Source of the DNA: Cylindrospermopsis raciborskii Cr2010
Lineage (GTDB): Bacteria > Cyanobacteriota > Cyanobacteriia > Cyanobacteriales > Nostocaceae
Direction: 5' to 3'
NCBI RefSeq assembly: GCF_003367075.2
Contig: NZ_CP065936.1
Span: 2,910,001 to 2,942,000 of the forward strand
DNA length: 32,000 bases
Below, piece after piece: positions 1,161 to 26,364 of the stretch. Made by a program: the position numbers and the translations under genes. The notes under the pieces were generated by a model. That model was not told the origin of the DNA and ran no database searches. It saw nothing but the letters and a program-made list of their open reading frames with translations. Numbering within the stretch: the first letter of the stretch is position 1; each line of letters begins with the position of its first letter.

Positions 1161-1351
1161 ACCCACGACAAAGCCAGTCGGTTTTTAACCTAGGAAGCTT
1201 TAAGACAATTAATTTCCTGTCTCCCCCACGGACAGTCTCCAGGTAGGGGTTAATTCAAACAATTATAGTTAATCCCATAGAGAGTGCTTCGCGATCGCCC
1301 TCTTGAATTAGAGATAAACTAGGATAAGATAATAAGCACATATTCATTGGT
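1161..1351 (+). other. left boundary of the paralog array: long-form 'linker' element joined directly to a short leader, with no 123-bp repeats
   Basis: acccacgacaaagccagtcgg...ctttaagacaattaatttcctgtctcccccacggacagtctccagg is followed at once by taggggttaattcaaacaattatagttaatccc. These are the same two junction sequences that flank every internal repeat block. The leader here is about 40 bp shorter than the internal leaders and keeps an intact HIP1 site (gcgatcgc, 1291-1298). Confidence 0.6.
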
Positions 1352-2901
1352 ATGAACCCCAAAAATCTCCCCCTGGGGATCAACACCCTAGATAAACTAC
1401 GCGGTAGCAACTGTATTTACGTGGACAAAACACGACTTGCCCTCCAGTTGATAAAACAGCCTGGAGCCTTCTTTTTGTCTCGTCCCCGACGTTTTGGCAA
1501 AAGTCTGTTTATAGATACCCTCAAGGAGATTTTTGAAGGGAATCAGAAATTATTTGAGGGGCTTTATATCCATGACCAATGGGATTGGAGTAGAAAATTC
1601 CCAGTGATTAAAATAGACTTTGCTGGTGGGGTATTAAAAAACCGACAAGAGCTGGATCTGCGCATACTGGATATTTTACACGAAAACGCAGAGTATCTGG
1701 GTGTGTCCTACGAGTCAACAGATATACCAGGAAAATTAGGAACTTTGATTCGTAAGGCCATGGCAAAATATGGAGAACGTGCGGTGGTGCTGGTGGATGA
1801 ATACGATAAACCCATCCTAGACAACATCGACAACCCACCTATTGCTGCTGAAATGAGAGAGGGACTCAAGAACCTATACTCGGTTCTCAAGCAACAGGAT
1901 GCCAACATCCAGTTCATCTTCATGACTGGAGTCACCAAATTCTCCAAAGTCAGCCTTTTTAGCGGGTAAATCAACTCACGGACATTACCATCAGTAGGGA
2001 TTTTTCCACCATTTGTGGTACACCCAGGAAGATTTTGGAGCAAAAACCTTTGCCAGCACTTGCAAGGGTAGACTGGGATAAACTGCGCCTCTGGTATAAT
2101 GGATACTCGTGGCGTGGCGATTCCGTTTATAACCCCTACGATATCTTACTGTTTATCCGTGAGGGAATGGAGTATGGCAACTACTGGTTTGAGACAGGAA
2201 ACCCCACCTTCTTAATTAAGCTATTTCAGACCAACTGCTACTTCCTCCCCAAATTAGAGCATCTAGAAGTAACCGAAGAGATTTTAAAGTCCTTTGAAAT
2301 AGAACGAATTAACCCAGTCACCCTGTTATTTCAATCTGGGTATTTGACCATTGAGAGCACCTTTACCGCTATGGAACGTTACATGTTCCGACTGAAAATT
2401 CCTAACCAGGAAGTGAAAGTCGCCTTGGGAGATCAATTAGTCAACGCCTACACGGACTTCGTTGAAGAGAAATTGGGTATTCAGAGACCCTTGTATGAAA
2501 ACTTATTTCAAGGTGATGTTAATGGATTTATCGACACAGTAAGACGCCTATTTGCTTCTATACCTTGGCGGAACTTTACCAACAATGACCTGGCTAATTT
2601 TGAGGGCTACTACGCTTCTGTGCTATATGCTTTCCTGAGTTCCTTAAATGCGCGCATCATTCCCGAAGATATCACCAACTATGGTCAAGCGGACATAACG
2701 GCCATGTTGGGTAATCATATTTACGTGATAGAAATCAAAGTAGTAGATGGGGAGAACGTAAAAGAGAACCTAGCCCTAAAACAAATTCGGGAATGTAACT
2801 ATGCGCAAAAGTATAGAGGAGAACCGGGGAGAACCGTTCATGAAGTGGGGTTGGTTTTTAGTCGCAGCAAACGTAACCTCATCCAAGCAGATTGGGAATA
2901 A
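1352..2901 (+). pseudogene. AAA-ATPase_like + PD-(D/E)XK (PDDEXK_9-type) protein, copy 1, frame-disrupted (cassettes A-A-H3)
   Basis: ORF pieces 1352-1969 and 2035-2901 are colinear with the intact 516-aa copy at 24733. Several 1-2 nt homopolymer indels are clustered at about 1966-2075, for example agcgggtaaatc versus agcgggttaaatc and gcaaaaacc versus gcaaacc. Confidence 0.75.
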
Positions 2902-2972
2902 ATTAAGATAAATATAATCAGTCACGATAAAACTGAATTAGGCTTTGAGACAATTAATTCCCTGTCTCCCCC

Positions 2973-3741
2973 ACGGACAGTCTCCAGGTGTGGGTTAATT
3001 CAACTAAATCACGGGTAATCCTTTGCAATCGCGTTTATATATATCCTGTGGGTTTGTTGGGTTTCGTTCCTCAACCCAACCTACGAAACTCTCCCACGGA
3101 CAGTCTCCAGGTAGGGGTTAATTCAACTAAATCACGGGTAATCCTTTGTAATCTCGTTTATATATATCCTGTGGGTTTGTTGGGTTTCGTTCCTCAACCC
3201 AACCTACGAAACTCTCCCACAGACAGTCTCCAGGTAGGGGTTAATTCAACTAAATCACGGGTAATCCTTTGTAATCTCGTTTATATATATCCTGTGGGTT
3301 TGTTGGGTTTCGTTCCTCAACCCAACCTACGAAACTCTCCCACAGACAGTCTCCAGGTAGGGGTTAATTCAACTAAATCACGGGTAATCCTTTGCAATCG
3401 CGTTTATATATATCCTGTGGGTTTGTTGGGTTTCGTTCCTCAACCCAACCTACGAAGCTCTCCCACAGACAGTCTCCAGGTAGGGGTTAATTCAACTAAA
3501 TCACGGGTAATCCTTTGCAATCGCGTTTATATATATCCTGTGGGTTTGTTGGGTTTCGTTCCTCAACCCAACCTACGAAGCTCTCCCACAGACAGTCTCC
3601 AGGTAGGGGTTAATTCAACTAAATCACGGGTAATCCTTTGCAATCGCGTTTATATATATCCTGTGGGTTTGTTGGGTTTCGTTCCTCAACCCAACCTACG
3701 AAGCTCTCCCACGGACAGTCTCCAGATGTGGGTTAATTCAA
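2973..3741 (+). repeat. 123-bp tandem repeat block 1, 6 full units
   Basis: The 'acggacag' phase marker occurs at 2973, 3096, 3219, 3342, 3465, 3588 and 3711, an exact 123-bp period. Each unit contains the hairpin GTTGGGTT-tcgttcctc-AACCCAAC. Confidence 0.97.
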
Positions 3742-3862: not shown

Positions 3863-5416
3863 ATGAACCCCAAAAATCTCCCGTTGGGAATCAACACCCT
3901 GAGTATGCTACGGGAAAACAATTGTGTCTATGTGGACAAAACCGAAATAGCTCACGGTCTGATACGCATTCCTGGACGCTTCTTTCTATCTCGTCCCCGA
4001 CGTTTCGGCAAAAGTTTGTTTATAGATACCCTCAAGGAGATTTTTGAGGGGAATCAGAAATTATTTGAGGGGCTTTATATCTATGGCCAATGGGACTGGA
4101 GTAGAAAATTCCCAGTGATTAAAATAGACTTTGCTGGTGGAGTATTAAAAAACCGACAAGAGCTGGACCAAAAAATTAATGGTATTTTTTTAAAAACTGC
4201 CCAATCCCTGGGAGTGGACTATGAACTAAAGGATATTCAAGGTCGTTTCGGGGAAATTATTGCGGGTGCATATCAACGATTTGGAGAAAGGACTGTGGTG
4301 CTGGTAGATGAATATGATAAACCCATCCTGGATAATATAGACAACCCACCCGTTGCTGCTGAAATGAGAGAGGGGCTCAAGAATCTATACTCAGTCCTCA
4401 AGGAGCAGGATGCCAACCTGCAGTTTGTCTTCATGACTGGAGTCACCAAATTCTCCAAAGTCAGCCTTTTTAGCGGTTTAAACCAACTCACGGACATCAC
4501 CATTGATACTAGATACTCTTCCATCTGCGGTTACACGGAAACCGACCTCACCGAATCCTTCGGAGAACATCTTGCAGGAGCAGATCGAGAAGCAGTACGC
4601 TCTTGGTATAATGGTTATAACTGGACAGGTTCCGAGAGCGTTTATAACCCCTACGATATCCTCATGTTTATCGATAAGGGCAAGATATTTCACAACTACT
4701 GGTTTGAAACCGGGAACCCGACGTTCCTGGTTAAATTATTTCAAGCCAACAGCTACTTCCTCCCTAACCTAGAGCATCTAGAGGTAACCGAGGAGATCTT
4801 AGAGTCCTTTGAAGTAGAACGGATAAACCCCGTCACCTTGTTATTTCAATCTGGGTATTTGACCATTGATCATACCTTTATCCGTCGCCATCGCTCCATG
4901 TTTGCTCTAAAAATACCCAACATGGAAGTTCGTCTGACATTAAATGACCATTTTATCAACGCGTATACGGAAATAGTAAATGAAAAGAGTGCTATCCAAG
5001 ATAGATTATATGAGTATATGTGTAGTGGAGATTTAGAATCAACAGTGAAAGCAGTAAAGCGTCTATTTGCAGGGATTCCCTGGCGGAACTTTACTAACAA
5101 TGACCTGGCTAATTTTGAGGGTTACTATGCTTCTGTGCTATATGCTTTCTTGAGTTCCTTAAATGCGCGCATCATTCCCGAAGATATCACCAACTATGGT
5201 CAAGCGGACATAACAGCCATCTTGGGTGATCATATTTACGTGATAGAAATCAAAGTAGTAGATGGGGACAATGTAAAAGAGAACCTAGCCCTAAAACAAA
5301 TACGGGAATGTAACTATGCACAAAAGTATAGGGGAGAACCAGGTAAAACTGTTCATGAAGTGGGGTTAGTTTTTAGTCGCAGCAAACGTAATCTCATTCA
5401 AGCAGATTGGAAATAA
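3863..5416 (+). CDS. AAA-ATPase_like + PD-(D/E)XK (PDDEXK_9-type) protein, copy 2, intact 517 aa (cassettes B-B-H1)
   Basis: The N-terminus has the family hallmark LPLGINT...YVDKT...FFLSRPRRFGKSLF (GKS at aa 49-51). A Walker-B-like VVLVDEYD lies at aa 145-152. The C-terminal nuclease core is E440...D449...E462-I-K464 (YGQADITA...YVIEIKV). Confidence 0.9.
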   Translation: MNPKNLPLGINTLSMLRENNCVYVDKTEIAHGLIRIPGRFFLSRPRRFGKSLFIDTLKEIFEGNQKLFEGLYIYGQWDWSRKFPVIKIDFAGGVLKNRQELDQKINGIFLKTAQSLGVDYELKDIQGRFGEIIAGAYQRFGERTVVLVDEYDKPILDNIDNPPVAAEMREGLKNLYSVLKEQDANLQFVFMTGVTKFSKVSLFSGLNQLTDITIDTRYSSICGYTETDLTESFGEHLAGADREAVRSWYNGYNWTGSESVYNPYDILMFIDKGKIFHNYWFETGNPTFLVKLFQANSYFLPNLEHLEVTEEILESFEVERINPVTLLFQSGYLTIDHTFIRRHRSMFALKIPNMEVRLTLNDHFINAYTEIVNEKSAIQDRLYEYMCSGDLESTVKAVKRLFAGIPWRNFTNNDLANFEGYYASVLYAFLSSLNARIIPEDITNYGQADITAILGDHIYVIEIKVVDGDNVKENLALKQIRECNYAQKYRGEPGKTVHEVGLVFSRSKRNLIQADWK

Positions 5417-5487
5417 GTTAAGATAAATATAATCACTCACGATAAAACCGAATTAGGCTTTGAGACAATTAATTCCCTGTCTCCCCC

Positions 5488-6010
5488 ACGGACAGTCTCC
5501 AGGTAGGGGTTAATTCAACTAAATCACGGGTAATCCTTTGCAATCGCGTTTATATATATCCTGTGGGTTTGTTGGGTTTCGTTCCTCAACCCAACCTACG
5601 AAGCTCTCCCACGGACAGTCTCCAGGTAGGGGTTAATTCAACTAAATCACGGGTAATCCTTTGCAATCGCGTTTATATATATCCTGTGGGTTTGTTGGGT
5701 TTCGTTCCTCAACCCAACCTACGAAGCTCTCCCACGGACAGTCTCCAGGTAGGGGTTAATTCAACTAAATCACGGGTAATCCTTTGCAATCGCGTTTATA
5801 TATATCCTGTGGGTTTGTTGGGTTTCGTTCCTCAACCCAACCTACGAAACTCTCCCACGGACAGTCTCCAGGTAGGGGTTAATTCAACTAAATCACGGGT
5901 AATCCTTTGCAATCGCGTTTATATATATCCTGTGGGTTTGTTGGGTTTCGTTCCTCAACCCAACCTACGAAGCTCTCCCACGGACAGTCTCCAGGTAGGG
6001 GTTAATTCAA
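5488..6010 (+). repeat. 123-bp tandem repeat block 2, 4 full units
   Basis: Phase marker at 5488 and 5980, a difference of 492 = 4 x 123. All junctions are of the 'gtagg' type. Confidence 0.97.
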
Positions 6011-6131: not shown

Positions 6132-7675
6132 ATGAACCCCAAAAATCTCCCCCTGGGGATCAACACCCTAGATAAACTACGCGGTAGCAACTGTATTTAT
6201 GTGGACAAAACACCGCTTGCCCTCCAGTTAATAAAACAGCCTGGAGCCTTCTTTCTATCTCGTCCCCGACGTTTTGGTAAAAGTCTGTTTCTAGATACCC
6301 TCAAGGAGATTTTTGAGGGGAATCAGAAATTATTTGAGGGGCTTTATATCTATGACCAATGGGACTGGAGTAGAAAATTCCCAGTGATTAAAATAGATTT
6401 TGCTGGTGGGGTATTAAAAAACCGACAAGAGCTGGATCTGCGAATACTGGATATTTTACACGAAAACGCAGAGTATCTGGGTGTGTCCTACGAGTCAACT
6501 GATATACCGGGAAAATTAGGAACTTTGATTCGTAAGGCCATGGCAAAATATGGAGAACGTGCGGTGGTGCTAGTGGATGAATACGACAAACCCATCCTAG
6601 ACAATATAGACAACCCACCTATTGCTGCTGAAATGAGAGAGGGGCTCAAGAATCTATACTCCGTTCTCAAGCAACAGGATGCCAACCTGCAGTTTGTCTT
6701 CATGACTGGAGTCACCAAATTCTCCAAAGTCAGCCTTTTTAGCGGTTTAAACCAACTCACGGACATCACCATTGATACTAGATACTCTTCCATCTGCGGT
6801 TACACGGAAACCGACCTCACCGAATCCTTCGGAGAACATCTTGCAGGAGCAGATCGAGAAGCGGTACGCTCTTGGTATAATGGTTATAACTGGACGGGTT
6901 CCGAGAGCGTTTATAACCCCTACGACATCCTCATGTTTATCGATAAGGGCAAGATATTTCACAACTACTGGTTTGAAACCGGGAACCCGACGTTCCTGGT
7001 TAAATTATTTCAAGCCAACAGCTACTTCCTCCCTAACCTAGAGCATCTAGAGGTAACCGAGGAGATCTTAGAGTCCTTTGAAGTAGAACGGATAAACCCC
7101 GTCACCTTGTTATTTCAATCTGGGTATTTGACCATTGATCATACCTTTATCCGTCGCCATCGCCCAAGTTTGTCTAAAAATACCCAACATGAAGTTCGTC
7201 TGACATTAAATGACCATTTTATCAACGCGTATACGGAAATAGTAAATGAAAAGAGTGCTATCCAAGATAGATTATATGAGTATTGTGTAGTGAGATTTAG
7301 AATCAACAGTGAAGCAGTAAAGCGTCTATTTGCAGGGATTCCCTGGCGGAACTTTACTAACAATGACCTGCTAATTTTGAGGGTTACTATGCTTCTGTGC
7401 TATATGCTTTCTTGAGTTCCTTAAATGCGCGATCATTCGAAGATATCACCAACTATGGTCAAGCGGACATAACAGCCATCTTGGGTGATCATATTTACGT
7501 GATAGAAATCAAAGTAGTAGATGGGGACAGTGTAAAAGAGAACCTAGCCCTAAAACAAATACGGGAATGTAACTATGCACAAAAGTATAGGGGAGAACCA
7601 GGTAAAACTGTTCATGAAGTGGGGTTAGTTTTTAGTCGCAGCAAACGTAATCTCATTCAAGCAGATTGGGAATAA
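6132..7675 (+). pseudogene. AAA-ATPase_like + PD-(D/E)XK protein, copy 3, frame-disrupted (cassettes A-A-H1)
   Basis: ORF pieces 6132-7415 and 7397-7675. An indel patch at about 7160-7440 gives a net -10 nt relative to 1554 nt. The rest is near-identical to the intact copies. Confidence 0.75.
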
Positions 7676-7746
7676 GTTAAGATAAATATAATCACTCACG
7701 ATAAAACCGAATTAGGCTTTGAGACAATTAATTCCCTGTCTCCCCC

Positions 7747-8146
7747 ACGGACAGTCTCCAGGTAGGGGTTAATTCAACTAAATCACGGCTAATCCTTTGC
7801 AATTGCGTTTATATATATCCTGTGGGTTTGTTGGGTTTTGTTCCTCAACCCAACCTACGAAGCTCCCCCACGGACAGTCTCCAGGTAGGGGTTAATTCAA
7901 CTAAATCACGGGTAATCCTTTGCAATCGCGTTTATATATATCCTGTGGGTTTGTTGGGTTTTGTTCCTCAACCCAACCTACGAAGCTCTCCCACGGACAG
8001 TCTCCAGATGTGGGTTAATTCAACTAAATCACGGCTAATCCTTTGCAATCGCGTTTATATATATCCTGTGGGTTTGTTGGGTTTCGTTCCTCAACCCAAC
8101 CTACGAAACTCTCCCACGGAGAGTCTCCAGGTAGGGGTTAATTCAA
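7747..8146 (+). repeat. 123-bp tandem repeat block 3, 3 full units
   Basis: Phase marker at 7747 and 8116, a difference of 369 = 3 x 123. Confidence 0.97.
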
Positions 8147-8267: not shown

Positions 8268-9821
8268 ATGAACCCCAAAAATCTCCCCCTGGGGATCAAC
8301 ACCCTAGATAAACTACGCGGTAGCAACTGTATTTATGTGGACAAAACACCGCTTGCCCTCCAGTTAATAAAACAGCCTGGAGCCTTCTTTTTGTCTCGTC
8401 CCCGACGTTTTGGTAAAAGTCTGTTTATAGATACCCTCAAGGAGATTTTTGAGGGGAATCAGAAGTTATTTGAGGGGCTTTATATCTATGACCAATGGGG
8501 CTGGAGTAGAAAATTCCCAGTGATTAAAATAGATTTTGCTGGTGGGGTATTAAAAAACCGACAAGAGCTGGACCAAAAAATTAATGGTATTTTTTTAAAA
8601 ACTGCCCAATCCCTGGGAGTGGACTATGAACTAAAGGATATTCAAGGTCGTTTCGGGGAAATCATTGCTGGTGCATACCAACGATTTGGAGAAAGAACAG
8701 TGGTGCTGGTAGATGAATATGATAAACCCATCCTAGACAACATCGACAACCCAGCTATTGCTGCTGAAATGAGAGAGGGACTCAAAAACCTATACTCCGT
8801 CCTCAAGGAGCAGGATGCCAACCTGCAGTTTGTCTTCATGACTGGAGTCACCAAATTCTCCAAAGTCAGCCTTTTTAGCGGTTTAAACCAACTCACGGAC
8901 ATCACCATTGATACTAGATACTCTTCCATCTGCGGTTACACGGAAACCGACCTCACCGAATCCTTCGGAGAACATCTTGCAGGAGCAGATCGAGAAGCGG
9001 TACGCTCTTGGTATAATGGTTATAACTGGACGGGTTCCGAGAGCGTTTATAACCCCTACGACATCCTCATGTTTATCGATAAGGGCAAGATATTTCACAA
9101 CTACTGGTTTGAAACCGGAACCCGACGTTCCTGGTTAAATTATTTCAAAGCCAACAGCTACTTCCTCCCTAACCTAGAGCATCTAGGAGGTAACCGGAAT
9201 CTTAGAGTCAGCCTTGAGTAGAACGGATAACCCCGTCACCTTGTTATTTCAATCTTGGGTATTTGACCATTGATCATACCTTTATCCCGTCGCCATCGCT
9301 CCATGTTTGCTCTAAAATACCCAACATGGAAGTTCGTCTGACATTAAATGACCATTTTATCAACGGTATAGCGGAAATAGTAAATGAAAAGAGTGCTATC
9401 CAAGAAGATAGATTATATGAGTATATGTGTGTAGTGGAGATTTAGAATCAACAGTGAAAGCAGTAAAGCGTCTATTTGCAGGGATTCCTGGAACTTTACT
9501 AACAATGACCTGGCTAATTTTGAGGGTTACTATGCTTCTGTGCTATATGCTTTCTTGAGTTCCTTAAATGCGCGCATCATTCCCGAAGATATCACCAACT
9601 ATGGTCAAGCGGACATAACAGCCATCTTGGGTGATCATATTTACGTGATAGAAATCAAAGTAGTAGATGGGGACAGTGTAAAAGAGAACCTAGCCCTAAA
9701 ACAAATACGGGAATGTAACTATGCACAAAAGTATAGGGGAGAACCAGGTAAAACTGTTCATGAAGTGGGGTTAGTTTTTAGTCGCAGCAAACGTAATCTC
9801 ATTCAAGCAGATTGGGAATAA
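8268..9821 (+). pseudogene. AAA-ATPase_like + PD-(D/E)XK protein, copy 4, frame-disrupted (cassettes A-B-H1)
   Basis: ORF pieces 8268-9221, 9263-9445 and 9540-9821. There are many small indels at about 9115-9500. The total length is still 1554 nt, so the indels compensate each other. Confidence 0.75.
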
Positions 9822-17080: not shown

Positions 17081-18632
17081 ATGAACCCCAAAAATCTCCC
17101 CCTGGGGATCAACACCCTAGATAAACTACGCGGTAGCAACTGTATTTACGTGGACAAAACACGACTTGCACTCCAGTTGATAAAACAACCTGGAGCCTTC
17201 TTTCTATCTCGTCCGCGACGTTTTGGCAAAAGTCTGTTTATAGATACCCTCAAGGAGATTTTTGAAGGGAATAAGAAATTATTTGAGGGGCTTTATATCC
17301 ATGACCAGTGGGACTGGAGTAGAAAATTCCCAGTGATTAAAATAGATTTTGCTGGTGGAGTATTAAAAAACCGACAAGAGCTGGACCAAAAAATTAATGG
17401 TATTTTTTTAAAAACTGCCCAGTCCCTGGGAGTGGACTATGAACTAGAGGACATTCAAGGTCGTTTCGGAGAAATCATTGCTGGTGCATACCAACGATTT
17501 GGAGAAAGAACAGTGGTGCTGGTGGATGAATACGACAAACCCATCCTAGACAACATCGACAACCCAGCTATTGCTGCTGAAATGAGAGAGGGACTCAAAA
17601 ACCTATACTCAGTCCTCAAGGAACAGGATGCCAACATCCAGTTCATCTTCATGACTGGAGTCACCAAATTCTCCAAAGTCAGCCTTTTCAGTGGGTTAAA
17701 TCAACTCACCGACATTACCATCAGTAGGGACTTTTCCACCATTTGTGGGTATCACCCAGGAAGATTTGGAGCAAACCTTTCGCCCAGCACTTGCAAGGGG
17801 TAGACTGGGATAAACTGCGCCTCTGGTATAATGGATACTCGTGGCGTGGCGATTCCGTTTATAACCCCTACGATATCTTACTGTTTATCCGTGAGGGAAT
17901 GGAGTATGGCAACTACTGGTTTGAGACAGGAAACCCCACCTTCTTAATTAAGCTATTTCAGACCAACTGCTACTTCCTCCCCAAATTAGAGCATCTAGAA
18001 GTAACCGAAGAGATTTTAAAGTCCTTTGAAATAGAACGAATTAACCCAGTCACCCTGTTATTTCAATCTGGGTATTTGACCATTGAGAGCACCTTTACTG
18101 CTATGGAACGTTACATGTTCCGACTGAAAATTCCCAACCAGGAAGTGAAAGTCGCCTTGGGAGATCAATTAGTCAACGCCTACACGGACTTCGTTGAAGA
18201 GAAATTGGGTATTCAGAGACCCTTGTATGAAAACTTATTTCAAGGTGATGTTAATGGATTTATCGACACAGTAAGACGCCTATTTGCTTCTATACCTTGG
18301 CGGAACTTTACTAACAATGACCTGGCTAATTTTGAGGGTTACTATGCTTCTGTGCTATATGCTTTCTTGAGTTCCTTAAATGCGCGCATCATTCCCGAAG
18401 ATATCACCAACTATGGTCAAGCGGACATAACAGCCATCTTAGGTGATCATATTTACGTGATAGAAATCAAAGTAGTAGATGGGGACAATGTAAAAGAGAA
18501 CCTAGCCCTAAAACAAATACGGGAATGTAACTATGCGCAAAAGTATAGAGGAGAACCAGTAAAACTGTTCATGAAGTGGGGTTGGTTTTTAGTCGCAGCA
18601 AACGTAATCTCATTCAAGCAGATTGGGAATAA
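17081..18632 (+). pseudogene. AAA-ATPase_like + PD-(D/E)XK protein, copy 9, frame-disrupted (cassettes A-B-H3)
   Basis: ORF pieces 17081-17803 and 17743-18642. Indels lie at about 17750-17800 and in a second patch from about 18555 that continues into the non-coding linker and the first repeat unit (to about 18790). The gene is only 39 nt downstream of copy 8, with no repeat block and no TTGAAT box between them. Confidence 0.75.
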
Positions 18633-18696
18633 ATTAAGATAAATATAATCACTCACGATAAAAGATTAGGCTTCTGATTAATTCACCTGTCTCCCC

Positions 18697-19476
18697 ACGG
18701 ACAGTCTCCAGGTGTGGGTTAATTCCAACTAAATCACGGGTAATCCTTTTGCAATCGCGTTTATATATTGTCCTGTGGGTTTGTTGGGTTTCGTTCCTCA
18801 ACCCAACCTACGAAGCTCTCCCACGGACAGTCTCCAGGTAGGGGTTAATTCAACTAAATCACGGGTAATCCTTTGCAATCGCGTTTATATATATCCTGTG
18901 GGTTTGTTGGGTTTCGTTCCTCAACCCAACCTACGAAGCTCTCCCACGGACAGTCTCCAGGTGTGGGTTAATTCAACTAAATCACGGGTAATCCTTTGCA
19001 ATCGCGTTTATATATATCCTGTGGGTTTGTTGGGTTTCGTTCCTCAACCCAACCTACGAAGCTCTCCCACGGACAGTCTCCAGGTGTGGGTTAATTCAAC
19101 TAAATCACGGGTAATCCTTTGCAATCGCGTTTATATATATCCTGTGGGTTTGTTGGGTTTCGTTCCTCAACCCAACCTACGAAGCTCTCCCACGGACAGT
19201 CTCCAGGTGTGGGTTAATTCAACTAAATCACGGGTAATCCTTTGCAATCGCGTTTATATATATCCTGTGGGTTTGTTGGGTTTCGTTCCTCAACCCAACC
19301 TACGAAGCTCTCCCACGGACAGTCTCCAGGTGTGGGTTAATTCAACTAAATCACGGGTAATCCTTTGCAATCGCGTTTATATATATCCTGTGGGTTTGTT
19401 GGGTTTCGTTCCTCAACCCAACCTACGAAGCTACGAAGCTCTCCCACGGACGGTCTCCAGGTTTCGGTTAATTCAA
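18697..19476 (+). repeat. 123-bp tandem repeat block 7, 6 units
   Basis: Phase marker at 18697, 18823 (+126, three 1-nt insertions), 18946, 19069, 19192, 19315 and 19446 (+131, an 8-bp 'ctacgaag' duplication). Junctions are mostly 'gtgtg'. Confidence 0.95.
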
Positions 19477-19597
19477 ATAATTATAGTTAATCCCATAAGT
19501 AGTGCTTCGCAATCACTTTTAATTTAAAATAAATTCACATAAATAACCCCGGTGATTGAATTAGAGATAAACTAGAGTTAGGATAATAAGCATTAGT

Positions 19598-21144
19598 ATG
19601 AACCCCAAAAATCTCCCGTTGGGAATCAACACCCTGAGTATGCTACGGGAAAACAATTGTGTCTATGTGGACAAAACCGAAATAGCTCACGGTCTGATCC
19701 GCATTCCTGGACGCTTCTTTCTATCTCGTCCCCGACGTTTCGGCAAAAGTCTGTTTATAGATACCCTCAAGGAGATTTTTGAAGGGAATCAGAAATTATT
19801 TGAGGGGCTTTATATCCATGACCAGTGGGACTGGAGTAGAAAATTCCCAGTGATTAAAATAGATTTTGCTGGTGGGGTATTAAAAAACCGACAAGAGCTG
19901 GATCTGCGCATACTGGATATTTTGCACGAAAACGCAGAGCATCTGGATGTTCATATAAGTCAACTGATATCCGGGAAAATTGGGAACTTTTTGATTCGTA
20001 GGCATGGCAAAATATGGACAACGTCGATGGTCAGTGGATGAATGACAACCCATCCTACGACAACATCGACAACCCATCTATTGCTGCTGAAATGAGAGAG
20101 GGACTCAAAAACCTATACTCCGTCCTCAAGCAACAGGATGCCAACATCCAGTTCGTCTTCATGACTGGAGTCACCAAATTCTCCAAAGTCAGCCTTTTTA
20201 GTGGTTTAAACCAACTCACGGACATCACCATTGATACCAGATACTCCTCCATCTGTGGTTACACGGAAACCGATCTGACCGAATCCTTCGGAGAACATCT
20301 TGTAGGAGCAGATCGAGAAGCAGTACGCTCCTGGTATAATGGTTATAACTGGACAGGTTCCGAGAGCGTTTACAACCCCTACGATATCCTCATGTTTATC
20401 GATAAGAGGAAGATATTTCGCAACTACTGGTTTGAGACAGGTAGTCCCAGTTTTCTAGTCAAGCTATTCCAAGCCAAGTGCTACTTCCTCCCCAACCTAG
20501 AGCATCTAGAGGTAACCGAGGAGATCCTAGAGTCCTTTGAAGTAGAACGGATAAACCCAGTTACCTTGTTATTTCAATCTGGGTATTTGACCATTGAGAG
20601 CACCTTTACCGCTATGGAACGTTACATGTTCCGACTGAAAATCCCCAACCGGGAGGTAAAAGTCGCCTTGGGAGATCAATTAGTCAACGCCTACACGGAC
20701 TTCGTTGAAGAGAAATTGGGTATTCAGAGACCCTTGTATGAAAACTTATTTCAAGGTGATGTTAATGGATTTATCGACACAGTAAGACGCCTATTTGCTT
20801 CTATACCTTGGCGTAACTTTACCAACAATGACCTGGCTAATTTTGAGGGCTACTACGCTTCTGTGCTATATGCTTTCTTGAGTTCCTTAAATGCGCGCAT
20901 CATTCCCGAAGATATCACCAACTATGGTCAAGCGGACATAACGGCCATCTTAGGTGATCATATTTACGTGATAGAAATCAAAGTAGTAGATGGGGAGAAT
21001 GTAAAAGAGAACCTAGCCCTAAAACAAATTCGGGAATGTAACTATGCGCAAAAGTATAGGGGAGAACCGGGGATAACCGTTCATGAAGTGGGGTTGGTTT
21101 TTAGTCGCAGCAAACGTAACCTCATCCAAGCAGATTGGGAATAA
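19598..21144 (+). pseudogene. AAA-ATPase_like + PD-(D/E)XK protein, copy 10, frame-disrupted (cassettes B-A-H2)
   Basis: ORF pieces 19598-20041 and 20014-21144. A dense indel patch lies at about 19945-20060, for example ggatgttcatat versus ggatgtgtcatat and aactttttgatt versus aactttgatt. Confidence 0.75.
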
Positions 21145-21215
21145 ATTAAGATAAACATAATCAGTCACGATAAAACCGACTTAGGCTTTGAGACAATTAA
21201 TTCCCTGTCTCCCCC

Positions 21216-21861
21216 ACGGACAGTCTCCAGGTAGGGGTTAATTCAACTAAATCACGGCTAATCCTTTGCAATCGCGTTTATATATATCCTGTGGGTTTGT
21301 TGGGTTTCGTTCCTCAACCCAACCTACGAAGCTCCCCCACGGACAGTCTCCAGATGTGGGTTAATTCAACTAAATCACGGGTAATCCTTTGCAATCGCGT
21401 TTATATATATCCTGTGGGTTTGTTGGGTTTCGTTCCTCAACCCAACCTACGAAGCTCCCCCACGGACAGTCTCCAGATGTGGGTTAATTCAACTAAATCA
21501 CGGGTAATCCTTTGCAATCGCGTTTATATATATCCTGTGGGTTTGTTGGGTTTCGTTCCTCAACCCAACCTACGAAGCTCTCCCACGGACAGTCTCCAGG
21601 TAGGGGTTAATTCAACTAAATCACGGGTAATCCTTTGCAATCGCGTTTATATATATCCTGTGGGTTTGTTGGGTTTCGTTCCTCAACCCAACCTACGAAG
21701 CTCTCCCACGGACAGTCTCCAGGTAGGGGTTAATTCAACTAAATCACGGGTAATCCTTTGCAATCGCGTTTATATATATCCTGTGGGTTTGTTGGGTTTC
21801 GTTCCTCAACCCAACCTACGAAGCTCCCCCACGGACAGTCTCCAGGTAGGGGTTAATTCAA
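21216..21861 (+). repeat. 123-bp tandem repeat block 8, 5 full units
   Basis: Phase marker at 21216 and 21831, a difference of 615 = 5 x 123. Confidence 0.97.
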
Positions 21862-21982
21862 ATAATTATAGTTAATCCCATAAGGAGTGCTTCGCAATCG
21901 CTTTTAATTTAAAATAAATTCACATAAATAACCCCGGTGATTGAATTAGAGATAAACTAGAGTTAGGATAATAAGCATTAGT

Positions 21983-23530
21983 ATGAACCCCAAAAATCTC
22001 CCGTTGGGAATCAACACCCTGAGTATGCTACGGGAAAACAATTGTGTCTATGTGGACAAAACCGAAATAGCTCACGGTCTGATACGCATTCCTGGACGCT
22101 TCTTTCTATCTCGTCCCCGACGTTTTGGCAAAAGTCTGTTTATAGATACCCTCAAGGAGATTTTTGAAGGGAATCAGAAATTATTTGAGGGGCTTTATAT
22201 CCATGACCAGTGGGACTGGAGTAGAAAATTCCCAGTGATTAAAATAGACTTTGCTGGTGGGGTATTAAAAAACCGACAAGAGCTGGATCTGCGCATACTG
22301 GATATTTTGCACGAAAACGCAGAGCATCTGGATGTGTCATATAAGTCAACTGATATACCGGGAAAATTGGGAACTTTGATTCGTAAGGCCATGGCAAAAT
22401 ATGGACAACGTGCGGTGGTGCTAGTGGATGAATATGACAAACCCATCCTAGACAACATCGACAACCCATCTATTGCTGCTGAAATGAGAGAGGGACTCAA
22501 AAACCTATACTCCGTCCTCAAGCAACAGGATGCCAACATCCAGTTCGTCTTCATGACTGGAGTCACCAAATTCTCCAAAGTCAGCCTTTTTAGCGGTTTA
22601 AACCAACTCACGGACATCACCATTGATACTAGATACTCCTCCATCTGTGGTTACACGGAAACTGACCTCACCGAATCCTTCGGAGAACATCTTGTAGGAG
22701 CAGATCGAGAAGCAGTACGCTCTTGGTATAATGGTTATAACTGGACAGGTTCCGAGAGCGTTTATAACCCCTACGATATCCTCATGTTTATCGATAGGCG
22801 AATTTTACACTACTGGTTTTGAAACCGGGAACCCGACGTTCCTGGTTAAATTATTTCAAGCCAACAGCTACTTCCTCCCTAACCTAGACATCTAGAGGTA
22901 ACTGAGGAGGATCTTAGAGTCCTTTGAAGTAGAACGGATAAACCCGTCACCTTGTTATTTCAATCTGGGTATTTGACCATTGATCATACCTTTATCCGTC
23001 GCCATCGCTCCATGTTTGCTCTAAAAATACCCAACATGGAAGTTCGTCTGACATTAAATGACCATTTTATCAACGCGTATACGGAAATAGTAAATGAAAA
23101 GAGTGCTATCCAAGATAGATTATATGAGTATATGTGTAGTGGAGATTTAGAATCAACAGTGAAAGCAGTAAAGCGTCTATTTGCAGGGATTCCCTGGCGG
23201 AACTTTACCAACAATGACCTGGCTAATTTCGAGGGCTACTACGCTTCTGTGCTATATGCTTTCCTGAGTTCCTTAAATGCGCGCATCATTCCCGAAGATA
23301 TCACCAACTATGGTCAAGCGGACATAACGGCCATCTTAGGTGATCATATTTACGTGATAGAAATCAAAGTAGTAGATGGGGAGAATGTAAAAGAGAACCT
23401 AGCCCTAAAACAAATTCGGGAATGTAACTATGCGCAAAAGTATAGAGGAGAACCGGGGAGAACCGTTCATGAAGTGGGGTTGGTTTTTAGTCGCAGCAAA
23501 CGTAACCTCATTCAAGCAGATTGGGAATAA
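21983..23530 (+). pseudogene. AAA-ATPase_like + PD-(D/E)XK protein, copy 11, frame-disrupted (cassettes B-A-H1)
   Basis: ORF pieces 21983-22822 and 22952-23530, with an indel patch at about 22795-22950. Confidence 0.75.
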
Positions 23531-23601
23531 ATTAAGATAAACATAATCAGTCACGATAAAACCGGCTTAGGCTTTGAGACAATTAATTCCCTGTCTCCCC
23601 C

Positions 23602-24611
23602 ACGGACAGTCTCCAGGTAGGGGTTAATTCAACTAAATCACGGGTAATCCTTTGCAATCGCGTTTATATATATCCTGTGGGTTTGTTGGGTTTCGTTCCT
23701 CAACCCAACCTACGAAGCTCCCCCACGGACAGTCTCCAGATGTGGGTTAATTCAACTAAATCACGGGTAATCCTTTGCAATCGCGTTTATATATATCCTG
23801 TGGGTTTGTTGGGTTTCGTTCCTCAACCCAACCTACGAAGCTCTCCCACGGACAGTCTCCAGGTAGGGGTTAATTCAACTAAATCACGGGTAATCCTTTG
23901 CAATCGCGTTTATATATATCCTGTGGGTTTGTTGGGTTTCGTTCCTCAACCCAACCTACGAAGCTCTCCCACGGACAGTCTCCAGGTAGGGGGTTAATAA
24001 ATCACGGGTAATCCTTTGCAATCGCGTTTATATATATCCTGTGGGTTTGTTGGGTTTCGTTCCTCAACCCAACCTACGAAGCTCTCCCACGGACAGTCTC
24101 CAGGTAGGGGTTAATTCAACTAAATCACGGGTAATCCTTTGCAATCGCGTTTATATATATCCTGTGGGTTTGTTGGGTTTCGTTCCTCAACCCAACCTAC
24201 GAAGCTCTCCCACGGACAGTCTCCAGGTAGGGGTTAATTCAACTAAATCACGGGTAATCCTTTGCAATCGCGTTTATATATATCCTGTGGGTTTGTTGGG
24301 TTTCGTTCCTCAACCCAACCTACGAAGCTCCCCCACGGACAGTCTCCAGATGTGGGTTAATTCAACTAAATCACGGGTAATCCTTTGCAATCGCGTTTAT
24401 ATATATCCTGTGGGTTTGTTGGGTTTCGTTCCTCAACCCAACCTACGAAGCTCTCCCACGAACAGTCTCCAGGTAGGGGTTAATTCAACTAAATCACGGG
24501 TAATCCTTTGCAATCGCGTTTATATATATCCTGTGGGTTTGTTGGGTTTCGTTCCTCAACCCAACCTACGAAGCTCTCCCACGGACAGTCTCCAGATGTG
24601 GGTTAATTCAA
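23602..24611 (+). repeat. 123-bp tandem repeat block 9, 8 units
   Basis: Phase marker at 23602 and 24581, a difference of 979 = 8 x 123 - 5. One unit has a small deletion at about 23990 ('tagggggttaataaatc'). Confidence 0.95.
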
Positions 24612-24732
24612 ACAATTATAGTTAATCCCATAAGGAGTGCTTCGCAATCACTTTTAATTTAAAATAAATTCACATAAATAACCCCGGTGATTGAATTAGA
24701 GATAAACTAGAGTTAGGATAATAAGCATTAGT

Positions 24733-26283
24733 ATGAACCCCAAAAATCTCCCGTTGGGAATCAACACCCTGAGTATGCTACGGGAAAACAATTGTGTCTA
24801 TGTGGACAAAACCGAAATAGCTCACCGTCTGATACGCATTCCTGGACGCTTCTTTCTATCTCGTCCTCGACGTTTCGGCAAAAGTTTGTTTATAGATACC
24901 CTCAAGGAGATTTTTGAGGGGAATCAAAAATTATTTGAGGGGCTTTATATCCATGATCAATGGGACTGGAGTAGAAAATTCCCAGTGATTAAAATAGACT
25001 TTGCTGGTGGGGTATTAAAAAACCGACAAGAACTGGATCTGCGCATACTGGATATTTTACACGACAATGCGGAGTATCTGGGTGTGTCCTACGAGTCAAT
25101 TGATATACCAGGAAAATTAGGAACTTTGATTCGTAAGGCCATGGCAAAATATGGAGAACGTGCGGTGGTGCTGGTGGATGAATACGATAAACCCATCCTA
25201 GACAACATCGACAACCCGCCTATTGCTGCTGAAATGAGAGAGGGACTCAAGAACCTATACTCGGTTCTCAAGCAACAGGATGCCAACATCCAGTTCATCT
25301 TCATGACTGGAGTCACCAAATTCTCCAAAGTCAGCCTTTTTAGCGGGTTAAATCAACTCACGGACATTACCATCAGTAGGGATTTTTCCACCATTTGTGG
25401 GTACACCCAGGAAGATTTGGAGCAAACCTTTGCCCAGCACTTGCAAGGGGTAGACTGGGATAAACTGCGCCTCTGGTATAATGGATACTCGTGGCGTGGC
25501 GATTCCGTTTATAACCCCTACGATATCTTACTGTTTATCCGTGAGGGAATGGAGTATGGCAACTACTGGTTTGAGACAGGAAACCCCACCTTCTTAATTA
25601 AGCTATTTCAGACCAACTGCTACTTCCTCCCCAAATTAGAGCATCTAGAAGTAACCGAAGAGATTTTAAAGTCCTTTGAAATAGAACGAATTAATCCAGT
25701 CACCCTGTTATTTCAATCTGGGTATTTGACCATTGAGAGCACCTTTACTGCTATGGAACGTTACATGTTCCGACTGAAAATTCCCAACCAGGAAGTGAAA
25801 GTCGCCTTGGGAGATCAATTAGTCAACGCCTACACTGACTTCGTTGAAGAGAAATTGGGTATTCAGAGACCCTTGTATGAAAACTTATTTCAAGGTGATG
25901 TTAGTAGATTTATAGACACAGTAAGAAGCCTGTTTGCTTCTATCCCTTGGCGTAATTTTACCAACAATAACCTGGCTAATTTCGAGGGCTACTACGCTTC
26001 TGTGCTATATGCTTTCCTGAGTTCCTTAAATGCGCGCATCATTCCCGAAGATATCACCAATTACGGTCAAGCGGACATAACAGCCATCTTGGGTAATCAT
26101 ATTTACGTGATAGAAATCAAAGTAGTAGATGGGGAGAACGTAAAAGAGAACCTAGCCCTAAAGCAAATACGGGAATGTAACTATGCACAAAAGTATAGAG
26201 GAGAACCAGGTAAAACCGTTCATGAAGTAGGCTTGGTTTTCAGTCGCAGCAAACGTAACCTCATCCAAGCAGATTGGGAATAA
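24733..26283 (+). CDS. AAA-ATPase_like + PD-(D/E)XK protein, copy 12, intact 516 aa (cassettes B-A-H3)
   Basis: Full-length ORF with the same motifs as copy 2. Confidence 0.9.
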   Translation: MNPKNLPLGINTLSMLRENNCVYVDKTEIAHRLIRIPGRFFLSRPRRFGKSLFIDTLKEIFEGNQKLFEGLYIHDQWDWSRKFPVIKIDFAGGVLKNRQELDLRILDILHDNAEYLGVSYESIDIPGKLGTLIRKAMAKYGERAVVLVDEYDKPILDNIDNPPIAAEMREGLKNLYSVLKQQDANIQFIFMTGVTKFSKVSLFSGLNQLTDITISRDFSTICGYTQEDLEQTFAQHLQGVDWDKLRLWYNGYSWRGDSVYNPYDILLFIREGMEYGNYWFETGNPTFLIKLFQTNCYFLPKLEHLEVTEEILKSFEIERINPVTLLFQSGYLTIESTFTAMERYMFRLKIPNQEVKVALGDQLVNAYTDFVEEKLGIQRPLYENLFQGDVSRFIDTVRSLFASIPWRNFTNNNLANFEGYYASVLYAFLSSLNARIIPEDITNYGQADITAILGNHIYVIEIKVVDGENVKENLALKQIRECNYAQKYRGEPGKTVHEVGLVFSRSKRNLIQADWE

Positions 26284-26364
26284 ATTAAGATAAATATAAT
26301 CACTCACGATAAAACCAGTCGGTTGAAAACCGAATTAGGCTTTGAGACAATTCATTCCCTGTCT
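26284..26364 (+). other. right boundary of the array: long-form linker, truncated, not followed by repeats
   Basis: attaagataaatataatcactcacgataaaacc[agtcggttgaaaacc]gaattaggctttgagacaattcattccctgtct. The bracketed 15 nt are missing from all internal linkers. Homology to the linker stops at 26364, inside the 'tgtctc' arm. Confidence 0.7.

Follow-up and report, generated by a model that had tools for sequence, protein, structure and literature searches.

A strain-variable tandem array of mosaic DUF1703 genes, predicted to encode NTPase-nucleases, with an intercalated 123-bp satellite in Raphidiopsis raciborskii

Introduction

The DUF1703 family, defined by Knizewski et al. 2007 (PMC1913061), is characterised by a deviant Walker A motif (RPRRFGKS) and a Walker B motif (DEYD). 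Expansions of DUF1703 paralogs have been described in Cardinium cCpun and a midge Rickettsia (Siozios et al. 2019, PMC6387759), where intragenic recombination proceeds without homogenisation (PMC6387759). The locus described here, from the bloom-forming cyanobacterium Cylindrospermopsis/Raphidiopsis raciborskii, resembles these expansions in its PF09820 and PF08011 domains, in both motifs and in the presence of many paralogs per genome. However, the Cardinium paralogs share a mean identity of only 39%, and their description, based on a draft genome, mentions no tandem arrangement (PMC6387759). The raciborskii array instead places 7-12 copies at a single locus, arranged head-to-tail and 77-98% identical in DNA; its cassettes have discrete trans-specific alleles, its 3' ends are homogenised and a 123-bp satellite lies between the genes. 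The original prediction, made from the sequence of this locus, that no described system is organised in this way needs narrowing: paralog expansion with intragenic recombination is known (PMC6387759), but no description of a tandem DUF1703 array with a satellite was found within the searchable literature.

Plant NLR clusters and bacterial STAND/Avs proteins offer a second comparison, and Avs3, Avs4 and Avs7 likewise use PD-(D/E)XK-type nucleases (PMC13581612). Apaf-1-type STAND and Orc1/Cdc6 proteins are the best structural matches of the NTPase module here, and NLR clusters share with the array tandem co-oriented mosaic paralogs, copy-number polymorphism, and an invariant effector with other surfaces variable. 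Characterised STAND defence proteins have a repeat-type sensor domain, whilst the DUF1703 array shows no LRR, TPR or WD40 sensor, bears its nuclease at the C- rather than the N-terminus, and yields neither a PADLOC Avs match nor evidence of positive selection. Concerted evolution, as in rDNA arrays, Borrelia vls and Neisseria pilS, is a third parallel, with homogenised spacers and gene ends, segment exchange and fast change in unit number; in raciborskii, by contrast, homogenisation is partial and the cassettes stay dimorphic. Furthermore, vls and pilS pair one expression site with silent cassettes, whereas all units of the raciborskii array appear expressible. Finally, NsiR1 of the heterocystous cyanobacterium Anabaena consists of tandem, mutually similar intergenic units of about 100 bp, each with its own promoter and terminator; in the 123-bp units, which derive from the gene array's own spacer, neither was seen.

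Results

The window, i.e. the whole 32,000-nucleotide stretch of DNA that was analysed, contains 12 co-oriented DUF1703 copies (blastn, with one copy as query), comprising 11 full-length genes and one 5'-truncated gene, together with nine blocks of 123-bp repeats of 0.9-8.3 units each (TRF, blastn). The array begins at about 1163 (CACGACAAAGCCAGTCGG...) and ends at about 26364 (CCCTGTCT), with unique sequence beyond. The coordinates, periodicity and domain calls of the original prediction all proved correct on re-analysis (blastn, TRF, Pfam), and its 12 co-oriented copies were recovered by blastn, save that copy 7 retains only the 3' 735 bp and 6 of the 11 full-length copies are frameshifted, leaving five open as assembled (at 3863, 10540, 12889, 15488 and 24733). 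The features are as follows, with mismatches and indels counted against genes of the same locus in CP091284.1.

1161..26364, plus strand: whole DUF1703 tandem array, 11 full-length genes and one truncated, with spacers and satellites
1161..1351, plus strand: spacer and leader ahead of g1, of ancestral type and homologous to C. curvispora spacers; unamplified, retaining the remnant of a hairpin and a single partial repeat (1221-1258)
1352..2901, plus strand: g1, type AAAA (one letter per cassette); frameshifted in the assembly, with 6 indels, confined to 1967-2066, and no mismatches against CP091284 g1
2966..3741, plus strand: satellite block 1, 6.3 units of 123 bp
3863..5416, plus strand: g2, intact, 517 aa, type BBBB; 100% identity to CP091284 g2
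5481..6010, plus strand: satellite block 2, 4.3 units
6132..7675, plus strand: g3, frameshifted as assembled; 4 mismatches and 9 indels (at 7164-7438, within cassette 4) against CP091284 g3
7740..8146, plus strand: satellite block 3, 3.3 units
8268..9821, plus strand: g4, frameshifted as assembled; 11 mismatches and 17 indels, at 9117-9490, against CP091284 g4
9886..10418, plus strand: satellite block 4, 4.3 units
10540..12093, plus strand: g5, intact, 517 aa, type ABBA; CP091284 lacks a close ortholog
12158..12767, plus strand: satellite block 5, 4.3 units and an irregular 80-bp duplication (0.6-unit tail)
12889..14439, plus strand: g6, intact, 516 aa, type BBAA
14504..14611, plus strand: lone 0.9-unit repeat, interrupted in its hairpin loop and joined there to sequence from mid-gene
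14616..15350, plus strand: g7, 5'-truncated, 3' 735 bp only, from about aa 272
15351..15487, plus strand: g7/g8 junction, leader only; linker and repeats deleted, the TAA stop abutting ATGTGGGTTAATTC
15488..17041, plus strand: g8, intact, 517 aa, type ACBA; protein exactly that of CP091284 g7
17042..17080, plus strand: g8/g9 junction, 39 bp, a deletion between AGATAAA microhomologies; leader and promoter region gone
17081..18632, plus strand: g9, frameshifted as assembled; 9 mismatches and 3 indels against CP091284 g8
18690..19480, plus strand: satellite block 6, 6.3 units
19598..21144, plus strand: g10, frameshifted as assembled; 17 mismatches and 11 indels, at 19951-20058, within cassette 2, against CP091284 g9
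21209..21865, plus strand: satellite block 7, 5.3 units
21983..23530, plus strand: g11, frameshifted as assembled; 12 mismatches and 8 indels, at 22797-22943, against CP091284 g10
23595..24611, plus strand: satellite block 8, 8.3 units
24733..26283, plus strand: g12, intact, 516 aa, type BAAA; 0 mismatches against CP091284 g11, with Pfam matches
26284..26364, plus strand: terminal linker with intact hairpin CCAGTCGGTTGAAAACCGA; array homology ends here
30510..30730, plus strand: solo DUF1703 relic, the final ~90 bp of the gene, then linker and the start of a repeat-like motif; the linker holds a 12-bp palindrome, GAGACAGGGAAT/ATTCC(T)TGTCTC

Gene and repeats are separated by a linker of about 64 bp, rather than the 85 bp first proposed, and each repeat block closes with a partial unit of 38-42 bp, after which comes a leader about 121 bp long. 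The numbers of units per junction (6.3, 4.3, 3.3, 4.3, 4.3 with the 0.6 irregular tail, 0.9, 0, 0, 6.3, 5.3 and 8.3) agree with the predicted series. The window assembly clearly has local consensus problems inside the array. The frameshifting indels, each of 1-2 nt, form clusters in six genes, lie inside variable cassettes and are almost free of accompanying substitutions; the frameshifts are probably assembly consensus errors. Truncated g7 is joined (14611/14612) to a repeat unit whose hairpin is interrupted, a fusion junction absent from every other locus compared, and both this copy and the exact repeat numbers could reflect assembly errors in the window.

Comparison with other strains nevertheless indicates that the 25-kb tandem array, with its 11-12 mosaic copies, is genuine and varies between strains, and is not an artefact. 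Intact genes at the same locus number 11 in CP091284.1, 7 in VHLJ01000003.1 and no fewer than 5 in JBPFSD010000001.1, independent long assemblies in which gene order is the same and all ORFs are intact; the array is real and large, as first described. The rapid change that had been suggested is likewise evident, with 7, 11 or 12 genes per strain and unequal repeat counts at orthologous junctions (6.3/7/6.3/5.3, 4.3/4.3/4.3/5.3 and 3.3/4.3/2.3/0 in four strains), the genes beside these variable junctions being 99-100% identical between strains.

The predicted domain assignment was upheld by Pfam searches of four of the five intact ORFs, each of which matched the AAA-ATPase_like family PF09820 over its full length (1-201/201; E = 8e-60 to 8e-62, 202-209 bits) and the PD-(D/E)XK family PDDEXK_9, PF08011 (about 3e-17, ~63 bits), well above the gathering cut-offs of 26.1 and 25.5 bits, respectively. 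SRPRRFGKSLF and VLVDEYDKP, containing the deviant Walker A (RPRRFGKS) and the Walker B (DEYD) motifs, are present in 16/16 aligned copies, and R44, P45, F48, G49, K50, D149 and D152 show no variation in 66 members of the family. The C-terminus, with which the DUF1703 protein ends, is assigned as a PD-(D/E)XK nuclease with putative catalytic residues E419, D449, E462 and K464 (motifs I-III), found in every array copy and at least 90% conserved family-wide. A structure model (pLDDT 91.8), with Apaf-1 (E = 5e-5) and Orc1/Cdc6 (E = 5e-4) as its top PDB matches, points to an N-terminal P-loop module of Apaf-1 / Orc1-Cdc6 structural type, followed by a putative helical/winged-helix region. A repeat-type sensor (TPR, WD40 or LRR) combined with an N-terminal effector was not seen, Pfam giving these two domains only and the model containing no solenoid. 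On this modelling each gene is predicted to encode a self-contained NTPase-nuclease. The family acts as a module of one gene, with no conserved neighbour among 139 flanking ORFs.

The copies are far from uniform, their DNA identity of 77-98% following a mosaic pattern in which paralogs 2-23% divergent occur in distinct combinations. Four variable cassettes (aa 14-39, 103-143, 215-302 and 336-404) each exist as two or three ancient alleles, reshuffled so that nearly every copy is a different combination (12 distinct combinations in total). Among 360 informative sites Rm was at least 32, and neighbour incompatibility was 0.14 as against 0.53 in 300 permutations, none of which was so low. The nuclease domain and spacer, meanwhile, are homogenised among units. 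These patterns demonstrate that the cluster evolves by unequal crossing-over and gene conversion, and with its tandem mosaic paralogs and copy-number polymorphism it follows an NLR/R-gene-like evolutionary mode. One contiguous segment (nuclease domain, linker, satellite, leader and first 13 codons) stays similar among units and supplies the homology for gaining and losing them. Recent RecA-type tandem amplification, with near-identical units and a single novel junction, was rejected, as the divergence between units reaches 23% and their alleles go back to before speciation.

The cassette alleles are older than speciation: A and B alleles recur in the C. curvispora array, at a different locus, with 92-97% amino-acid identity, and the best-matching allele for Sphaerospermopsis protein P0015 is 90-100% identical. 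Synonymous divergence (dS) has reached saturation in the cassettes, and the intervening blocks give values of 0.25-0.56, with dN/dS of 0.3-0.5 and 0.05, respectively; all copies are subject to purifying selection and appear catalytically complete. Positive selection (dN/dS > 1) is not shown, because cassette dN/dS lies below 1 and dS is saturated; the 0.3-0.5 applies to the two computable cassettes, with low power at such divergence, dN/dS being undefined in cassettes 3 and 4 through saturation of dS. The nuclease domain, nearly invariant in the array, is across the wider family (2.34 bits) more variable than cassettes 1 and 3. Conservation across the family is lowest in cassettes 2 and 4, and relaxed constraint could therefore explain part of the pattern.

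The 123-bp unit has three parts: ancestral spacer (55 nt), new sequence (about 35 nt) and a hairpin element that is also dispersed elsewhere in the genome. Spacers of C. curvispora can be aligned to the linker, to the opening 55 nt of the repeat and to the leader, and are unamplified there; these alignments demonstrate that the satellite arose secondarily in this lineage, by amplification of spacer sequence from the array itself, and is, by all appearances, not a separate functional partner. Within the genus, the DUF1703 arrays of C. curvispora (5 genes, homologous spacer), strain LYXA01 (at least 8 genes, spacers of 27-60 bp) and R. brookii D9 have no satellite, and the originally proposed coupling of gene and satellite as a property of the system does not survive this comparison. 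The zero-repeat junctions in the window are simple deletions. The satellite grows and shrinks like a VNTR (variable-number tandem repeat), and we infer that its only importance is most likely to add homology for recombination or to space the genes.

That the units are themselves functional, as tandem sRNAs, promoters or operator sites controlling adjacent genes in the manner of NsiR1, we judge improbable. The repeats are more uniform than the genes (93-100% identical in blastn to a single reference unit; 103 units are polymorphic at 10 positions, with variants common to different blocks), they contain an 8-bp GC-rich hairpin, a CACGGG/CCUGUG pairing that includes a G-U wobble, the tract TATATATAT and the motif GACAGTCTC, akin to the palindrome of the linker, and beyond genome assemblies our searches met the repeat only ahead of DUF1703 genes. 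Against this, there is no Rfam match even at E = 1, on neither strand is the folding energy better than that of shuffled sequence (z = -0.8 and -1.0), and no promoter-like, terminator-like or coding signal was found within the repeats, so that none of the marks of a tandem sRNA array (per-unit promoter, terminator, stable conserved fold or Rfam match) was present. Moreover, the same genes are arrayed without satellite elsewhere in the genus, and unit number varies freely from strain to strain, with three junctions having none.

Discussion

The reading that we favour, with some reserve, is of a long-lived DUF1703 cluster of recombining mosaics with a spacer-derived satellite, whose paralogs may constitute a nuclease repertoire against foreign or selfish DNA. 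The paralogs would form a set of NTP-switched nucleases sharing one effector and differing on surfaces that determine ligand or nucleic-acid specificity, and would act on foreign or selfish DNA. If this is true, the cluster is a bacterial counterpart of the plant NLR/R-gene cluster. The defence locus of the original prediction is plausible but unsupported, and we continue only to infer it: no PADLOC family matched the DUF1703 protein at E <= 0.01, and 45 loci of other taxa showed no conserved defence neighbourhood, their flanks being heterogeneous and defence genes scattered.

A selfish or mobile unit, in which gene plus spacer copies itself alongside or the nuclease drives its own duplication, was the other origin first suggested, and we consider it decidedly unlikely. 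Horizontal spread is implied by the identity of 64-74% that the subfamily keeps across phyla, together with its host-like GC; unrelated lineages show repeated expansions of the family (PMC6387759), and the solo 3'-end relic lies 4 kb downstream of the array. Yet the array contains no transposase, integrase, terminal inverted repeats or target duplications, the units meet at homologous boundaries, simple microhomology marks the deletion junctions, purifying selection acts on all copies and the chromosomal locus is fixed across strains.

Still less probable are cassettes of antigenic or phase-variation type, with silent donor copies rewriting one expressed copy. Discrete cassettes are indeed shuffled among copies, and the window holds frameshifted copies and a truncated one; however, those frameshifts resemble consensus errors, and all copies in CP091284.1 (11/11) and VHLJ01000003.1 (7/7) are intact and full-length with their own start codon, most with their own leader. 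A single expression site with promoterless or truncated donors, as in pilE/pilS and vlsE, was not found, and the protein, with no signal peptide or surface domain in the Pfam results, is cytoplasmic as judged from its architecture.

An assembler's multiplication of one or a few true copies, which the local consensus errors (the 1-2-nt indel clusters in six genes) and the one odd truncated copy with its unique junction might suggest, already appears largely refuted and scarcely credible, as the copies are distinct mosaics and not duplicates, their orthologs stand in the same order with intact ORFs in CP091284.1, VHLJ01000003.1 and JBPFSD010000001.1, and many distinct array-type proteins have been deposited from other strains and metagenomes. 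Short-read contigs end exactly at the array edges.

Organisation of the array

The array is a tandem cluster, polymorphic between strains, in which ancient cassette alleles are maintained and reshuffled. Twelve co-oriented copies of a ~1.55-kb gene, as foreseen by the original prediction, were borne out by an ORF list, by Tandem Repeats Finder and by a blastn search of the window with a single copy; the array accounts for about 0.65% of the chromosome. The anticipated ATPase and nuclease domains were recovered when the proposed HMM check was run, the four intact ORFs scanned matching Pfam PF09820 over the full model (E = 8e-60 to 8e-62) and PF08011 (E ~3e-17). Only five array copies are open reading frames as assembled.

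1352-26283, forward strand: 12 co-oriented copies (g1-g12) of the DUF1703 gene
14616-15350, forward strand: g7, the 3' 735 bp of the gene only, joined to a satellite unit broken in its hairpin

The repeating unit had been described as constant; gene, leader (~121 bp) and 123-bp satellite repeats were found as described, but the linker between stop codon and first satellite unit measures ~64 bp rather than ~85 bp, and one copy (g7) is truncated. In junction order the counts of the 123-bp unit are 6.3, 4.3, 3.3, 4.3, 4.3 (plus an irregular tail), 0.9, 0, 0, 6.3, 5.3 and 8.3, and every satellite block is closed by a partial unit of 38-42 bp, followed by the leader and the ATG.

The locus in other strains

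The nearest database proteins are annotated Cylindrospermopsis (Raphidiopsis) raciborskii, and the locus is bordered by an 83-aa gene and a GTPase on one side and by a PD_DExK gene on the other. The array comprises 11 genes, all intact and encoding 516-517 aa, in the complete chromosome CP091284.1, 7 genes, again all intact, in VHLJ01000003.1, and at least 5 in JBPFSD010000001.1. Window genes 1-4 and 8-12 are orthologs, with order kept, of CP091284 genes 1-4 and 7-11 (0-17 mismatches each), and the two arrays differ in the middle. Comparison of related strains, which had been put forward as a check, found that gene number and repeat number both vary, satellite units across strains numbering 6.3, 7, 6.3 and 5.3 after gene 1, 3.3, 4.3, 2.3 and 0 after gene 3, and 8.3, 12.2 and 13.2 in the last block. 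Expansion of the array during assembly is all but ruled out, because the locus is present in three other assemblies and because contigs from short-read assemblies and metagenomes end at the first and last array gene.

Against CP091284, the left flank and g1 have no mismatches over 2965 bp but six 1-2-nt indels, all in 1967-2066. For g3, g4, g9, g10 and g11 there are 4-17 mismatches and 3-17 indels, about half of the latter in homopolymers, and in g3, g4, g10 and g11 the indels are packed into 100-400-bp stretches.

Clusters of 1-2-nt indels, with almost no substitutions, relative to CP091284
1967-2066
7164-7438
9117-9490
17752-17781
19951-20058
22797-22943

By our mapping all of these stretches fall inside the variable cassettes, i.e. 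where reads from paralogs would get confused in polishing, and indels of this kind are absent from the single-copy flanks. The frameshifts in the window copies are probably consensus errors, and it is very likely that the strain truly carries 11 intact genes and one fragment. The clusters, which look like failed polishing with paralogous reads mixed, are a warning for annotation of this assembly. Apparent third alleles at g3, g4, g10 and g11 in a mosaic table built from the window only were rejected as artefacts of the indel-ridden stretches, and the table based on CP091284 was used.

Cassettes, recombination and selection

Alignment of the 11 CP091284 genes with two window genes and three VHLJ genes resolved four variable protein segments, or cassettes (aa 14-39, 103-143, 215-302 and 336-404), each with two alleles; cassette 2 has a third allele as well, and cassette 3 a sub-variant. 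Alleles of a cassette differ by 38-59% in protein sequence, the blocks between cassettes are nearly identical across copies, and the nuclease domain (405-517) is almost invariant. Twelve combinations were found (AAAA, BBBB, AABB, ABBB, ABAA, BBBA, ACBA, BCBA, BCBB, BAAA, ABBA and BBAA). With 360 informative sites, at least 32 recombination events were detected, and incompatibility between neighbouring sites was 0.14, compared with 0.53 ± 0.004 in 300 permutations, none of which was as low.

Between A and B, synonymous divergence has reached saturation in the cassettes and is 0.25-0.56 in the blocks that separate them. Values of dN/dS were 0.3-0.5 in the cassettes, which with dS saturated there do not show positive selection on the array genes, and about 0.05 in the intervening blocks; all copies are therefore under purifying selection. 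Across the wider family the nuclease domain is more variable (2.34 bits) than cassettes 1 and 3 (2.1 bits), and its near-identity within the array therefore reflects homogenisation and not just constraint. What is kept similar among units is one contiguous tract, which begins with the nuclease domain, takes in linker, satellite and leader, and ends with the first 13 codons.

Both A and B alleles also occur in a five-gene array at a different locus in C. curvispora (92-97% identity), and a Sphaerospermopsis protein is 90-100% identical to its best-matching cassette allele; the A and B alleles are old. A silent-cassette variation system is rejected, since all genes are intact in CP091284.1 and VHLJ01000003.1, as is recent amplification, the copies being mosaics with 77-98% identity to one another and the alleles old. 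The array evolves by unequal crossing-over and gene conversion, with gene ends and spacers homogenised, and we hold this structural and evolutionary part of the explanation with high confidence. It is a clear bacterial case of partial concerted evolution, in which gene ends and spacer are homogenised and cassettes remain dimorphic across species, and its turnover between strains is VNTR-like; the host, a filamentous toxic bloom-former, has one of the smallest genomes of its kind. Together with its satellites the array is a strain-typing marker, and it is also a known trap for assembly and polishing.

Origin and possible role of the 123-bp satellite

Spacers of the C. curvispora array (200-520 bp) align, in order, with the window linker, the first ~55 nt of the unit (CTCCCCCACGGACAGTCTCCAGGYGTGGGTTAATT..AAATCACGGGTAAT) and the leader, without tandem amplification. 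The remainder of the unit consists of ~35 nt of new sequence and the hairpin GTTGGGTTTCGTTCCTCAACCCAAC(CTAC), which belongs to a small family of dispersed repeats with further copies elsewhere in R. raciborskii. The satellite derives from the array's own spacer.

L013 (CP060822.1) 6300-15182: C. curvispora DUF1703 array, five genes, adjoining GUN4 and dnaX; spacers homologous to those of the window, unamplified
L001 3477: dispersed hairpin GTTGGGTTTC(N)CTTCAACCCAACCTAC
L099 4671, 9235: the same hairpin
L103 9628, 9816, 10008: the same hairpin

The dispersed hairpin often lies beside a second one (GGGTCGAGTAACGAGACCC), forms its own ~190-bp tandem triple in L103 and is included in a ~228-bp duplication in the C. 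curvispora spacer at 5778-6299 of L013. Its translation in two frames yields the peptides LGFVPQPNL and VGFRSSTQPT, which also occur in spurious cyanobacterial ORFs; a literature search for this peptide signature found no paper.

Both junctions lacking repeats are simple deletions: at one the last partial unit's tail directly follows the stop codon, and the other, of 39 bp, formed between AGATAAA microhomologies. Unit variants are common to different blocks, and differences within a block are only slightly lower (2.3 vs 3.0). Beyond the genome assemblies, only two metagenome contigs were found to contain the satellite core, and in both the order is repeat, leader, DUF1703 gene. No match was found in plasmids, no comparable satellite lay beside DUF1703 genes of other taxa (0 of 80 loci), and the satellite is absent from other arrays of the genus, in LYXA01000001.1 and R. 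brookii D9.

A regulatory or RNA role for the satellite appears improbable. Rfam gave no match (whole window at gathering threshold; one block at E <= 1), folding energies of the unit on both strands were no better than those of shuffles (z = -0.8, -1.0), and a promoter/terminator scan placed no sites in the units, with totals at or below shuffle expectation; on these grounds an sRNA array was rejected. Coding repeats were also rejected: open frames such as 2988-3755 propagate trivially because 123 = 3 x 41, third codon positions show no excess of polymorphic sites, and gene callers put no gene there in CP091284.1. No sign of function having been found, the satellite is regarded as VNTR-like, a by-product of the recombination by which the array is built. 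The near-identical homology that it would add between genes, up to 1.6 kb, may promote gain and loss of whole units.

The DUF1703 protein and its relatives

The family is DUF1703 (Knizewski et al. 2007, PMC1913061), which at E <= 1e-3 comprises 15,054 clusters at 50% identity. All copies carry a deviant Walker A motif (RPRRFGKS), Walker B (DEYD) and the nuclease motifs E419, D449 and E462-x-K464. No PDB relatives of the array protein were detected by sequence or by profile, and PADLOC and NCBIfam gave no match. The best PDB matches of an AlphaFold model (mean pLDDT 91.8) were Apaf-1 (E = 5e-5) and archaeal Orc1/Cdc6 bound to DNA (E = 5e-4), and its C-terminus was matched by PD-(D/E)XK enzymes. 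By position, cassette 2 would correspond to the insert of two helices that lies between strand 2 and Walker B, cassette 3 to the lid, and cassette 4 to the helices and beta-hairpin preceding the nuclease. The elements at these positions contact DNA in Orc1/Cdc6-type proteins.

Homologs in MAGs of Bacteroidota, Chloroflexi and Desulfobacterota (L017, L018, L020-L028) share 63-74% protein identity with the cyanobacterial genes and have the GC content of their hosts (36-57%); the occurrence of close homologs (64-74%) across phyla with host-like GC suggests that this subfamily spread horizontally between phyla and then ameliorated. Among 139 ORFs flanking homologs in 45 loci there was no conserved gene partner, the commonest Pfam family occurring four times and PADLOC matches being scattered (one DpdF, one PsyrT and one TnpB-like protein). 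Phage records containing the protein were only 32 unannotated gut-metagenome 'Bacteriophage sp.' contigs, at <40% identity, and are uninformative.

Groups of two to five tandem copies are common: about a quarter of the 80 loci have more than one copy, usually co-oriented, and the 11-12-gene array is the largest among the loci examined. Another R. raciborskii assembly (4.01 Mb) has an array at a different locus, adjoining a CHASE2-Ser/Thr kinase. Its spacers, of two alternating types (27-36 bp and 58-60 bp), contain no 123-bp satellite, and their alternation indicates a two-gene higher-order unit.

L108 (LYXA01000001.1) 1-11554: at least 8 co-oriented DUF1703 genes, 517/521/522 aa, 80-95% identity

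A tandem repeat of 13.3 copies of 129 bp (L083 11731-13447) lies directly downstream of a Sphaerotilus DUF1703 gene; its sequence bears no relation to the 123-bp satellite, and it may be a coding repeat of a neighbouring gene.

The original prediction had named no described system of this organisation. Literature searches found no paper on the locus, whilst expansion of DUF1703 paralogs with intragenic recombination has already been described in Cardinium and Rickettsia symbionts (PMC6387759), and that part of the claim is qualified accordingly. New here are head-to-tail organisation at such scale, clean cassette dimorphism common to several species, partial concerted evolution and a spacer-derived satellite.

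Possible function of the cluster

Each paralog may be a stand-alone NTP-switched nuclease whose cassettes decide what is recognised, and the cluster would then act as a repertoire of recognition specificities, directed at foreign or selfish nucleic acids. A defence function is conceivable, at somewhat less than even chances. The fuller proposal, a germline-encoded combinatorial immune repertoire analogous to a plant NLR/R-gene cluster, is tentative and, taken whole, rather unlikely. On this proposal a fixed PD-(D/E)XK effector would be coupled to the NTPase, with four cassettes, including an ISM (initiator-specific motif)-like insert, a lid and a winged-helix/helical region, setting target specificity; unequal exchange would continually reshuffle long-maintained alternative alleles, and the 123-bp satellite would have been co-opted as a recombination spacer, such that genes could be gained, lost and reordered without damage. 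The array evolves in a manner like that of plant NLR clusters. Unlike Avs/STAND defence proteins, the array protein has no sensor repeats, no HMM match and its effector at the opposite end. For so large a family the array offers a natural experiment on function: it has 7-12 intact and closely related paralogs, and nearly all that distinguishes them is the swapping of four discrete cassettes ahead of an invariant nuclease.

Flanks of the array

26456-27067, 28065-28676 and 28693-29310: PD-(D/E)XK paralogs, 203-205 aa, PADLOC PDLC01472
27659-27958 and 30785-31084: segmental duplication, 97-98% identity
27089-27212 and 31630-31753: segmental duplication, 97-98% identity
30334-30438: in-frame 21-bp tandem repeat (AEQEKLR heptads, 5 copies) in the Uma2-family gene 29594-30493
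30510-30730: solo relic of a DUF1703 3' end (~90 bp), between two Uma2 genes, 4.2 kb beyond the array
L098 18133-19973 (CP091284): SMC_N/AAA_21 ATPase gene, ~8 kb upstream of the array; also in L097 and L099-L102

The three paralogs match PDLC01472 ('PD_DExK, CRISPR-associated', E = 1e-48 to 1e-51) and have no Pfam or NCBIfam match; no CRISPR array was seen within the window. In L098 a neighbour of the SMC_N/AAA_21 gene has a weak DUF4276 match, and the two may be a defence-type pair. The reading of the cluster as a repertoire fits this neighbourhood of nuclease families (three PD_DExK paralogs, Uma2, DUF29 and the upstream AAA_21/weak DUF4276 genes). Duplicated in the paired segments are the 5' part of a Uma2 gene and a stretch upstream of DUF29; homologous exchange therefore rearranges the right flank as well. 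The solo relic's linker still has the 12-bp palindrome in intact form, together with the beginning of the repeat motif. The 21-bp repeat is a second VNTR of the window, a 126-bp (6-unit) insertion at this site in CP091284 implying about 11 copies there.
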